Shown here piece by piece: positions 32,458 through 44,696 of a DNA stretch of 64,000 bases. Made by a program: the position numbers and the translations under genes. The stretch is from Escherichia coli (GTDB lineage Bacteria > Pseudomonadota > Gammaproteobacteria > Enterobacterales > Enterobacteriaceae). The notes under the pieces are model-generated. The model saw only the letters and a list, made by a program, of their open reading frames with translations. It searched no databases and was not told the DNA's origin. Location: NCBI RefSeq assembly GCF_965641715.1, contig NZ_OZ282453.1; one strand, given 5' to 3'. How positions within the stretch are numbered: position 1 is the first letter of the stretch; every line of letters starts with the position of its first letter.

Positions 32458-32852
32458 TACATTAAATCATCTGGTTTCTAAATAACCTTATTATGCACTG
32501 TAAGTGTATGTTGGCTTTATAAATTGCAATTTTTATATGGGAATTGTTTTGTCAATAGTTACGAAAAGGATAAATAAAATAACCACATCTTCTTGGCGTC
32601 GAATATTGGAGAGCGATAATTTATAGTAAACTAGATTACCAGAGAAAAGATAAGTAGCAATATATTTGCTGGTGGCATTTTTATTAAATATTATATGTGT
32701 TGGTTTGTGACTTTAAAAAAATTAATTATTTAATAAAAAGGTGATTTATTTCTTATTTTGATTAATCTTGAGGATCCATTATGATTATCAGTTGTATGTC
32801 ATAAAAATGAGGGGCTAAAAGCCTCAATGAATTGAGGCCTTTAGAACAGGGG

Positions 32853-33422
32853 TTATATCTTCTTTATATCTAACACATCACCCTCCCATACTCGTTTAAA
32901 TCTTGCTGCATTACTGGCTGTATATAATACCGTATGATGTATATTTCTGTGCCCTAAATAATCTTGTATTAGTCTGGTGTCTAACCCTTGATTAGCTAAA
33001 GCATACCCACAACCATGCCTAAGCATGTGAGGATGAATATTAATATTCATATTGTGACTATATTTCTTACACATCTTATACACATATTGTCTCGATATTT
33101 TATTTCCTTGACAAGAAAGAAATAAAGAGTCTTCAAAAGGTTTTTTTACTATGTTATCACGTAGTGCTAGCCATTTTTTTAATAACAGAACAGTTTCTTT
33201 TTGCAGGGGATGTACTGTGGATAATCCATTTTTTAAACGCTTGATATATATTGCTGACTCTGAAAAGTCAATGTCGCTAATCTTTAGTGCAATAAGCTCG
33301 CTTACCCTAAGGCCATGTACATATGCCATTTGTAACATGGCTTTATCTCTAATTTCATTTTTTGAACCGTTGATGGCTTCAAAAAATAACAACCATTCAC
33401 TATGAGTAATAAATTTGCGCAT
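32853..33422 (-). CDS. FimB/FimE-family tyrosine recombinase (switch recombinase paralog 1)
   Basis: 189 aa with the conserved C-terminal block HPHMLRH-GCGYALANQG-DTRLIQDYLGHRNIHHTVLYT; very AT-rich gene. Confidence 0.85.
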   Translation of the reverse strand: MRKFITHSEWLLFFEAINGSKNEIRDKAMLQMAYVHGLRVSELIALKISDIDFSESAIYIKRLKNGLSTVHPLQKETVLLLKKWLALRDNIVKKPFEDSLFLSCQGNKISRQYVYKMCKKYSHNMNINIHPHMLRHGCGYALANQGLDTRLIQDYLGHRNIHHTVLYTASNAARFKRVWEGDVLDIKKI

Positions 33423-34169
33423 AATATTACCAGTTATACTAATTAAGTTAAAAAATAAACTATAAATACCAGAGCCTGGTATTATTGCTTGTTTTTTATA
33501 AGCAAATAATGAGCTGGGGTTTAAATTATGCCACTAAATGGATATTCATCAATACCCCGCCAGAGAGATAGTTGCCCAGGGGGTATAGATTATTATTAGT
33601 CAACCAATGAGCATAAATAAGCACAAGGAGGTGTGTATTGCGAATAGTAATTCAATGCCATGCTGGTAGTTTTTTTGTGGTGAAAATATTTGTACCTTTT
33701 TGTTTACGGATGAAAAATAAACAGCCATATTATTTTGGTTAATTGTTGTGTTAGTTTTAACACTCGGTGATGTTTTTTGTTATAGTGCATTAATTTTTAA
33801 ATAAAAAAATTCATACATTCATGGATGTAATATATACAAGATGCAATGTTAATTTTAGATAAAATATTAATTGCATTGGATACTTTTTAAATATGCCGAT
33901 GTTGAGCTTAATTTTATGAGGGAGTGCTATTTCGGGTTGTAGGACTTTTTTATAATCATCTTATGGGCTCTTTATATTTAAAGGAGGGTTTTGAACGATA
34001 GGTACATAACGAAGGTTGTTTATATGCGTTTACAAACTATTAATTAGATTAGGTGAATTTTAATAAATTAATCTATAATCATACAGCAACTATATGAATT
34101 ATATTATTGACTAAATGTAATTCTTTCATCATAGTTGACATGGCTATTTTATATAAATAGAGGTGATTT

Positions 34170-34799
34170 ATGCAAAACAGAAAATTTTTAACGCATCATG
34201 AAATTAATTTACTACTTCAATCTGTAAAACAAAAGAGTTGCTCTTCACGCGATGTTTGCATGATTTTATTGGCTTATTTTCATGGTCTGCGTGTTAGTGA
34301 GCTCTTATCTCTGCAGTTGTCGGATTTAGAACTAACTACAGAAAAAATATATATTCAACGGATAAAAAATGGATTCAGTACAGTCCATCCACTTCAAAAG
34401 GAAGAGGTGATTGCAATAACAAACTGGCTGAATGAAAGGAATTCATTAAATGTTAAACATTTCAATGATAACCCGTGGTTATTTGTTTCCCGAACAGGAA
34501 AACCATTATCGAGACAACGATTTTATAACATAGTTTCTGCTGCGGGTAAAAATGCAGGTTTAAATATTAAAGTTCATCCACATATGTTACGCCATGCATG
34601 TGGTTATTCACTAGCAGATAATGGTGTGGATACCCGTCTTATTCAGGACTATCTCGGGCATCGTAATATCAGGCATACGGTAATTTATACTGCTTCTAAT
34701 TCAATGAGATTTGAAAAAATGTGGGGGAGAGGTGACGCAAAAAAGCAACATTTTGACCCAAAATGTAAACCCAATCTTTGTTTAGAAATTCTCGTATAG
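34170..34799 (+). CDS. FimB/FimE-family tyrosine recombinase (switch recombinase paralog 2)
   Basis: 209 aa with HPHMLRHACGYSLADNG…LIQDYLGHRNIRHTVIYT; divergent from paralog 1. Confidence 0.85.
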   Translation: MQNRKFLTHHEINLLLQSVKQKSCSSRDVCMILLAYFHGLRVSELLSLQLSDLELTTEKIYIQRIKNGFSTVHPLQKEEVIAITNWLNERNSLNVKHFNDNPWLFVSRTGKPLSRQRFYNIVSAAGKNAGLNIKVHPHMLRHACGYSLADNGVDTRLIQDYLGHRNIRHTVIYTASNSMRFEKMWGRGDAKKQHFDPKCKPNLCLEILV

Positions 34800-43681: not shown

Positions 43682-43728
43682 TCACACAGTGGCAGGAGGG
43701 GACCTCCTGCCACCTCAGGGTTGTCATA

Positions 43729-44259
43729 ATGAGTTCTGTAATGAAATTTTCTGTTGTTAATGCAGTAGTGCTGCTGTTGCTGATTGTACTTACTGGTGTT
43801 TTTTATATGAAAAAGTCAAAAGAAATTGCAGTTGTTAATATCGATGCTATTTATAATCAGTCTACCGCCGGAGACATGGCCAGAAAGCATCTGAATGAGG
43901 TTAAGAGTATTCTTGAAAAAGGATATGAGGATGCGCAAAAAGCATTCGCAGATAACGCGAATAAAGAGGCGCTGCTTCTTGATGCCAGACAAAAACTGGA
44001 ACGACAATATGTTATTGAGGAAAATAGCGCAAAAATGGTGTTATCCCGTGCGATAGATAATGCCATAGGCACATGGAGAAAAGACAATCCTAAAAATATT
44101 GCCGTATTGTCTTCAGGTGTTGTGCTTGCGCATAACGAGTCAGCTGATATCACCAAAGAAGTCATGACTTTGGTTGAAAAAGAAAATCTGGTTTTTAATA
44201 AATTACCCAAAGTGGAAGTGCACAATAAGAATGAAGAGAAACCAGAACAAAGTAAGTAA
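43729..44259 (+). CDS. Skp/OmpH-like periplasmic chaperone paralog
   Basis: 176 aa; signal anchor, then IAVVNIDAIYNQS and NIAVLSSGVVLAHNESADITKEVMTLV blocks resembling Skp (IAIVNMGSLFQQV … DVKDITADVLKQV). Confidence 0.6.
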   Translation: MSSVMKFSVVNAVVLLLLIVLTGVFYMKKSKEIAVVNIDAIYNQSTAGDMARKHLNEVKSILEKGYEDAQKAFADNANKEALLLDARQKLERQYVIEENSAKMVLSRAIDNAIGTWRKDNPKNIAVLSSGVVLAHNESADITKEVMTLVEKENLVFNKLPKVEVHNKNEEKPEQSK

Positions 44260-44696
44260 TCACTAGATTCTGACGATTTCCAGAAGGGAGATTCAGCAGG
44301 CCAGCATCTGTAATCATTCAGATTTGCTGGCTTGCTGCTAAATATGGTTGCTAAGAAAAATAGCAGGCCAGTAATTTATTCAGATTACTGAATATAATAA
44401 TTTTTCAGGAACGGTTATGCTGAAGGTAGTATGTTTAATAGACACAATTATTTGCTGTGTCTAATATGAGGTGACATTTTTATGATCACTGACCAGCAAG
44501 ACTGACCCGTATTGATTAGCCTGATTATTGGCAACTTATTGGGGTAGTCATTTTGACATCGAATGGGGGAGGTTTCCAGTTAAGTTCACGAATGCATGAT
44601 GATTTGCGTTCACATATCGAAGTACTGGTTGGCTATACTAAGGATTTTAAGATAACTCACTGATTGTAAGTGGGTTATTGCGAGGGGGATGATAGA

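Follow-up and report, generated by a model that had tools for sequence, protein, structure and literature searches.

What is the block of DNA that lies between dsdC and a prophage at argW in this Escherichia coli chromosome? We examined a stretch of 64,000 nucleotides (hereafter the window; contig NZ_OZ282453.1 of RefSeq assembly GCF_965641715.1) in which an initial annotation, made from the letters alone, had singled out an accessory block with two recombinase genes, a LuxR-type regulator gene, a gene for a giant autotransporter and a Skp-like gene. We conclude, with a probability of about 95%, that this block is the known ipuA/ipuB–ipuS–ipuR–upaE phase-variation island of extraintestinal pathogenic E. 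coli, complete and with its invertible switch, ipuS, in the OFF orientation. It adds one intact copy of a switch that was characterized, in mechanism and in phenotype, in papers of 2018–2019.

Identity of the block with the ipu locus

Aligned with K-12, the window contains an insertion of 12,263 bp at positions 32432–44694, between the 3′ end of dsdC (31504–32457, plus strand) and the prophage attR. Homology to K-12 breaks off at 32431, 26 nt ahead of the dsdC stop codon, and picks up again at 44695. The block had thus been recognized correctly at the outset, and the ends first given to it, 32458 and 44260, have to be moved outwards on both sides. The accompanying statement that the dsdC side adjoins the argW attachment region in K-12 holds: in MG1655 the argW remnant pawZ (15 nt, attR) lies 95 bp away from dsdC, and the cryptic prophage CPS-53 ends in torI and pawZ.

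Between window positions 24000 and 44711 (20.7 kb, from evgS to the argW-derived core), the uropathogenic strain CFT073 aligns collinearly at 97.9% identity. The alignment stops exactly at 44711, where CFT073 runs on into argW without a prophage. Nucleotide identity is 99.8% for ipuA, 99.5% for ipuB, 99.5% for ipuR, 98.3% for upaE and 97.9% for the Skp-like gene, and the RefSeq names in the matching regions are ‘tyrosine-type DNA invertase IpuA’, ‘IpuB’ and ‘phase-variable autotransporter adhesin UpaE’. Because of this collinearity and identity with the strain of the original description, we regard the block as the ipu locus itself and not as a look-alike. The earlier proposal, which placed it among phase-variation modules of the ipuA/ipuR/upaE type and thought it likely to belong to a class already described, was therefore sound and in fact understated, given also the published landmarks of the switch described below. 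The whole insertion, as delimited by the K-12 and CFT073 alignments, corresponds to the region that appears as PAI-CFT073-argW in a review table (PMC7545054).

The left junction falls within the last codons of dsdC, so that the DsdC C terminus reads ...REQVKTTS in K-12 and ...REQVSQYECYTL in the window and in CFT073. The four K-12 residues KTTS are swapped for eight (SQYECYTL), in the window and CFT073 alike.

Five substantial reading frames lie between dsdC and torI, all of them intact, and together with NCBIfam and Pfam matches they bear out the gene layout that had been proposed. On the minus strand, ipuB (32853–33422) encodes a tyrosine-type DNA invertase of 189 amino acids. On the plus strand, ipuA (34170–34799) encodes a second such invertase, whose full-length form of 209 amino acids is the OFF form. 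Both were assigned from NCBIfam model NF007370 and from identity to CFT073; IpuA scores 251.2 bits, over the curated cut-off of 221. IpuA is 51% identical to IpuB, 53% to FimB and 51% to FimE, and the catalytic columns (R, H-x-x-R, H and Y) are invariant in IpuA and IpuB when aligned with FimB and FimE. The divergent intergenic region between the two genes (33423–34169; 747 bp, with a G+C content (GC) of 28.4%) presumably holds the promoters of both, and no other segment of the module differs as much from CFT073 (96.9% identity, two indels). That a second, divergent recombinase is present had been called less expected; it is IpuB, which was described with the locus (PMC6083910, PMC6458436) and is present in CFT073. 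The same had been said of the Skp-like gene, which is also part of the CFT073 island, where it is annotated as ‘OmpH family outer membrane protein’.

Downstream of the switch, ipuR (35117–35737, plus strand) encodes a LuxR/GerE-type regulator of 206 amino acids, assigned from its C-terminal helix-turn-helix and from identity to CFT073. Known families match only this helix-turn-helix (approximately residues 139–195), and NCBIfam matches are limited to residues 118–199 and all fall far under their cut-offs; the Pfam domain GerE is present in the orthologue from Salmonella diarizonae (locus L004). The next gene, upaE (35762–43681, plus strand), is an intact frame of 2,639 amino acids for a phase-variable autotransporter adhesin, identified by NCBIfam, Pfam and the RefSeq name. 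Its product carries an ESPR signal peptide at residues 1–43 and PATR, AC_1 and autotransporter beta-domain matches in the C-terminal 1,200 amino acids (Pfam), with residues 2177–2639 forming the autotransporter barrel (TIGR01414, NCBIfam). We note that RefSeq flags upaE of CFT073 (positions 3816–11767 of locus L003) as a frameshifted pseudogene. A 271-kDa UpaE protein was detected from that strain (PMC6083910), and an error of sequencing in the 2002 record may underlie the flag.

The initial annotation had described about 12 kb of very AT-rich DNA. This is true of the 3.3-kb part that carries the recombinase and regulator genes (32458–35761, 32.5% GC), and the Skp-like gene has 37.3% GC; it does not apply to upaE, which makes up two thirds of the block at 48.8% GC and reaches 50.6% past its first 1.5 kb. 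Overall, the block has 43.7% GC, versus 46.8% for the whole window.

The ipuS switch and its orientation

In CFT073, ipuS is associated with a 317-bp spacer between ipuA and ipuR, and in the ON orientation IpuA loses 11 residues and acquires a K-to-F change at its new end (PMC6083910). The spacer in the window is 317 bp, exactly the published length. We placed the distal inverted repeat, TGACCCA, at 34754–34760 within the ipuA coding sequence and the proximal repeat, TGGGTCA, at 35022–35028 (both given on the plus strand), using in-silico inversion and conservation in Salmonella. Between them lies the invertible interior, 34761–35021, of 261 bp, which follows from the published mapping and a PacI site. 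When this interior is inverted in silico, ipuA encodes a protein of 198 amino acids that ends in ...KKQHFDPF*, which is the published 11-residue truncation with its K-to-F change; in the ON orientation, with 34761–35021 reverse-complemented, the junction would read ...TTTTGACCCATTTTGACAAC.... Because the window as given encodes the 209-amino-acid IpuA, its switch is in the OFF orientation. The PacI site, the only one inside the switch, lies asymmetrically at 34998–35005, and such a site reportedly serves as the orientation assay for ipuS (PMC6458436). Relative to CFT073 there is one mismatch in ipuA and there are four in the 317-bp spacer.

A comparison outside E. coli bears on the same assignment. 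A contig of Salmonella enterica subsp. diarizonae (GCA_017944985.1; locus L004, 257–10282) aligns with window positions 34162–44213 at 80.3% identity and carries, in this order, an invertase, a GerE regulator, an autotransporter of 2,632 amino acids and a Skp-like gene; it begins at ipuA, so the ipuB region lies outside it. The 24 nt about the distal repeat (34748–34771) and the 29 nt about the proximal repeat (35011–35039) are 100% identical between the two species, whereas the switch interior is 54% identical. This contrast therefore provides independent comparative support for the half-site assignment, and the conserved blocks probably mark the nucleotides that the invertases read. The orthologue also extends the module beyond E. 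coli. The longest inverted repeat in the region (34740–34757 / 35015–35032) was also considered as the core of the switch and was dropped: it is offset, and inversion at TTTTGAC/GTCAAAA would give an IpuA ending in ...FDNINLINYK (translated by hand).

Neither half-site has another copy in the window at up to three mismatches, save for one match at chance level. This uniqueness agrees with work on CFT073 in which each recombinase was overexpressed and inversions were sought across the genome: fimS, hyxS and ipuS were the only targets (PMC6458436).

By the published mapping, the interior would carry the ipuR–upaE promoter, here directed leftwards and antisense to ipuA. A terminator-like hairpin at 34961–34981, found by a terminator scan of both strands, lies within the switch, with folding energies of −14.8 and −13.0 kcal/mol on the two strands (z −5.0 and −4.6). 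In the OFF orientation it stands between ipuA and ipuR, and after inversion it would sit just past the stop codon of the truncated ipuA. The position of this hairpin is not kept in the Salmonella orthologue.

How the switch would act

In the mechanism published for CFT073, ipuS is an element of about 260 bp with TGACCCA/TGGGTCA ends, the distal one in the 3′ end of ipuA, that carries a promoter and is flipped by the invertases. In the ON orientation the promoter faces ipuR–upaE, IpuR and UpaE are made, and IpuA is 11 residues shorter. In the OFF orientation, that of the window, the promoter would be directed back into ipuA, IpuA would be of full length and UpaE would be silent.

Most of this scheme comes from experiments in CFT073. 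There, inversion and the transcription start site, mapped by 5′ RACE, have been shown, and UpaE was found on the surface of locked-ON cells only (PMC6083910). UpaE, a surface protein of 271 kDa, promotes biofilm formation and attachment to extracellular matrix. In the locked-ON state, swimming is reduced and adherence to kidney cells is stronger, and such cells win over locked-OFF ones when both compete in mouse kidneys (PMC6083910). According to PMC6458436, ipuS is inverted by IpuA, IpuB, FimE, FimX and, weakly, FimB; IpuB and FimE favour OFF-to-ON inversion and IpuA favours ON-to-OFF; and overexpression of IpuB raises ipuR approximately 1,600-fold and upaE approximately 33-fold, correlating with the orientation of the switch. 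Published reverse-transcription quantitative PCR found dsdC and dsdX expression unaffected by ipuS ON (PMC6083910, PMC6458436).

Distribution and orientation among genomes

We searched 5,426 complete E. coli genomes with window positions 31400–46000 using megablast. The 801-bp switch stretch (34500–35300) was present in 236 of them (4.3%), always on the chromosome, and 231 genomes had at least 80% of the dsdC–island stretch in one piece. All 236 were assembled in the OFF orientation and none in the ON orientation, each as a single full-length match to the OFF query, which indicates that UpaE is normally silent in cultured populations. The initial annotation had allowed that the block could turn out to be ordinary core variation; it is absent from K-12, and with the switch region in only 236 of the 5,426 genomes we regard the island as accessory.

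Carriers include CFT073, Nissle 1917, ATCC 25922, CE10 and SMS-3-5, and also isolates from soil, river water, poultry, cattle, dogs and wild mammals; the island is not confined to pathogens. For the ipuA–upaE region, PMC6083910 cites a prevalence of 37% in uropathogenic versus 7% in commensal strains.

A Skp-like gene behind upaE

The last gene of the island (43729–44259, plus strand) encodes a protein of 176 amino acids, which we assigned to the Skp/OmpH fold by fold comparison and by OmpH matches across its family. On its own, the protein matches Pfam OmpH (PF03938) below significance (independent E-value 0.0027, 18.4 bits). An NCBIfam scan gave no match for it, and a sequence search of the PDB gave matches at chance level only. 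Searching 1.84 billion representative proteins in full with HMMER yielded 166 relatives; OmpH was matched by 44 of 70 aligned homologues at E ≤ 0.001 and by 64 of the 70 at E ≤ 0.1. The AlphaFold2 model built from the family alignment has a mean predicted local distance difference test score (pLDDT) of 93.3 and shows, in order, an N-terminal hydrophobic helix (residues 9–26), a short strand, a long hairpin of helices and finally another strand. When this model was compared with the PDB using Foldseek, the ten best matches were all Skp/OmpH chains, at probabilities of 0.99–1.00; the top ones were 1SG2, 1U2M, 4KQT and 8GL8 SkpA, with target-normalized template modelling scores (TM-scores) of 0.43–0.68 and 16–21% aligned identity. 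These matches, together with those of the family to OmpH, support the description ‘Skp-like’ at the level of the fold. A cysteine occupies the lipobox position in 37 of the 70 relatives; in the proteins from Escherichia and Salmonella the residue is valine.

The position of the gene recurs. Seven of the 10 readable contexts (loci L004, L007, L009, L010, L012, L013 and L016) have the homologue just 3′ of a gene for type V secretion, with both genes on one strand. Six of these are classical autotransporter loci in which the two genes directly adjoin, and one is trimeric: in L016, a YadA-type adhesin gene is followed by a BamE/OmpA-like gene and then by the Skp-like gene. The three contexts without such a neighbour are contigs that are too short or have a divergent gene upstream. 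The pair of autotransporter and Skp-like gene is kept in orthologous and related loci although the regulatory front end changes.

One such change was seen in cryptic-clade Escherichia (GCA_004745395.1 and GCA_004212315.1; loci L006 and L007), which carry a UpaE-like autotransporter of 2,641 amino acids and a Skp-like gene that is 80% identical. This pair is preceded by FaeA (PapI-like) and PapB-type regulators and not by an invertase switch, and its neighbours resemble a P1/P7-type element (P7 C1 repressor, DUF968 and integrase). The adhesin–chaperone pair may have been re-wired here to another kind of phase control.

In the window, the gap from the upaE stop codon to the start of the Skp-like gene is 47 nt and contains a G+C-rich hairpin with an 11-bp stem and no T-tract (43689–43713, plus strand); the 60-nt stretch with this hairpin folds at −24.3 kcal/mol (z −3.1). 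Co-transcription of the Skp-like gene with upaE is plausible. A strong hairpin 3′ of the gene (44294–44336, plus strand; −28.2 kcal/mol, z −4.7), which the terminator scan did not call and which has no T-run after it, is possibly the end of the transcription unit. If co-expressed with UpaE, a Skp-fold protein would hold the long unfolded passenger and the barrel in the periplasm. We propose tentatively, and with clearly less than even confidence, that the gene encodes a dedicated, co-inherited periplasmic chaperone for giant autotransporters, accessory to type V secretion, and that it would be the third gene under ipuS control. The text of PMC6083910 contains neither of the words OmpH and Skp, and our literature searches returned no account of an autotransporter-linked Skp/OmpH gene pairing, which is no proof that none exists. 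The recurrent position behind type V secretion genes offers a hypothesis for how very long passengers survive the periplasm.

The Skp-like gene was found in 252 E. coli genomes, versus 236 with ipuS, so that some genomes have retained the gene in the absence of ipuS or have incomplete islands. Two copies occur in a few genomes, one copy is plasmid-borne, and two records match the gene at only 80–90% identity.

Weighing the reading

Several points weigh against reading the block as a complete and functioning ipu island with an additional chaperone gene. The repeats enclose 261 bp by our count versus 260 bp as published; since the window and CFT073 show no indel there, we take this as a difference in counting and not in sequence. 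A promoter consensus scan of the switch at a threshold of at least 9 of 12 matches found no site; the published ipuS promoter is itself weak, with hexamer matches of 4/6 and 4/6 (PMC6083910). The NF007370 score of IpuB, 204.9 bits, is under the curated cut-off of 221. The role of IpuR is putative, and switching and expression here are expected from sequence identity to CFT073. We infer that the hairpin within ipuS insulates ipuR against read-through from ipuA in the OFF orientation. As for the gene behind upaE, the ipuS papers (PMC6083910 and the text of PMC6458436 that was read) describe a two-gene operon and no third gene, the hairpin at 43689–43713 is a candidate partial terminator or RNA stabilizer, and the chaperone is likewise a candidate.

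A different account of the same block would be that it is a decayed remnant, locked OFF, that no longer switches or expresses UpaE in this lineage. The finding that 236 of the 236 switch-bearing complete genomes are assembled OFF, as the window is, would fit this, as would the frameshift flag on upaE of CFT073. An assembly consensus, however, records only the majority orientation, and an OFF majority fits the reported ON-to-OFF bias of IpuA (PMC6458436). The five reading frames of the window are intact, the 7.9-kb upaE included, as are the catalytic residues of both invertases, and CFT073, in which inversion has been demonstrated, has the same sequence at both inverted repeats and in their conserved flanks. 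With frames intact and catalytic residues kept, there is no reason in the sequence to suppose a dead system, and we consider decay improbable. Still less probable is a second invertible element in the island, served by IpuB and located, for instance, in the 747-bp ipuB–ipuA spacer. Two recombinases for one known switch might suggest such an element, and the spacer does hold a 25-nt imperfect inverted repeat (72% complementary) at 33568–33592 / 34069–34093. Repeats of like quality are abundant, with 263 pairs in 3.4 kb of this AT-rich DNA; the spacer holds no copy of the ipuS half-sites, and beyond one match at chance level the window has no further copy of either at up to three mismatches; and the reported genome-wide search in CFT073 found inversion at fimS, hyxS and ipuS only. 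IpuB needs no target of its own, because it is reported to be an efficient OFF-to-ON invertase of ipuS (PMC6458436).

The position of the block beside a prophage raises the further question of whether it is ‘moron’ cargo of the argW prophage and not an independent island. It directly adjoins the torI-bearing prophage end, its regulatory part is AT-rich, as is much horizontally acquired DNA, and most of the listed island-bearing genomes show a match to the initial few hundred bases of the prophage end as well. Against this, the attR core (44697–44711) stands between the two, which places the island outside the prophage. CFT073 has the island beside an intact argW without a prophage, and in K-12 a prophage sharing this torI end occurs without the island. 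Identity to strain TL20 (NZ_CP191567.1) also differs between the two parts: the prophage is approximately 100% identical over 19.3 kb to the same-site prophage of that strain, whereas divergence is approximately 1.3–2% in the island and in the chromosome left of it. Prophage and island therefore have separate histories, and we regard a cargo origin as highly unlikely. The near-identity of the prophages beside a more diverged island and chromosome suggests that one phage was acquired by both strains recently and independently, or that the junction has recombined. On the preferred reading, that of an independent ipu island, the lambdoid prophage would have integrated at argW later than the island, leaving the island between dsdC and attR and no longer beside argW.

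Neighbouring features

At its right end the insertion has 435 non-coding bases as far as attR. The attR core of the argW prophage (44697–44711, minus strand) is an exact match to the reverse complement of the pawZ 15-mer, equals the 3′ end of the tRNA-Arg gene argW, and marks where the island stops on the right and the prophage begins. The lambdoid prophage runs from 44712 to the end of the window (64000); torI (44785–44985, minus strand) lies at its island-proximal end, and further features are a lambda cIII thermoregulator (50570–50628) and genes for tRNA-Asn and tRNA-Thr (58147–58302). The idea that the island is an old argW integrant was dropped: its mark would be a degenerate duplicate of the argW 3′ end where the island meets dsdC, and none was seen by eye in 32380–32860, a stretch that was not searched formally.

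On the left, dsdA (28609–29937) is 94.9% identical to its CFT073 counterpart, and dsdX and dsdC are 98.4% and 97.5% identical. The lower identity of dsdA suggests that part of the D-serine locus has undergone local recombination.

Comparison with known systems

The Skp-like protein shares with Skp of E. coli (PDB 1SG2 and 1U2M) the fold of the protomer, a small beta-sheet body with a long alpha-helical hairpin. It differs in sequence, at 16–21% identity, and in the place of its gene, which lies behind an autotransporter gene and not at the housekeeping skp position; for export, the trimeric ‘jellyfish’ assembly and client binding, the comparison goes as far as the predicted protomer.

The fimB/fimE–fimS system has homologous recombinases with the same catalytic residues. 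Its half-sites are reported to be similar, and the recombinases to cross-react at both switches (PMC6083910, PMC6458436). In contrast to ipuS, fimS has 9-bp repeats, drives a chaperone-usher fimbrial operon with no regulator or autotransporter downstream, and has its repeat outside the recombinase gene.

Closer in design is fimX–hyxS–hyxRAB on PAI-X (UTI89, EC958 and CFT073), in which a Fim-type tyrosine invertase is likewise followed, in this order, by a short promoter-bearing invertible element, a LuxR-type regulator and an autotransporter (hyxB, that is, upaB). By its descriptions it is set apart by another island and site, a single recombinase and a much smaller autotransporter. The inverted repeats of hyxS are longer, given as 16 bp (PMC6083910) or 9 bp (PMC11294581), and the locus has hyxA, with no Skp-like gene mentioned in its descriptions.

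The ipu locus of CFT073 itself matches the window in gene order and orientation, in its site at the dsdC 3′ end with the altered DsdC C terminus, and in the 317-bp spacer, the 7-bp repeats and the PacI site. The two differ in that the window has a lambdoid prophage at argW beside the island and CFT073 has none, in upaE, which is unbroken over 2,639 codons in the window and frameshifted according to RefSeq in CFT073, and in approximately 1–3% of positions, chiefly in upaE and the ipuB–ipuA spacer.

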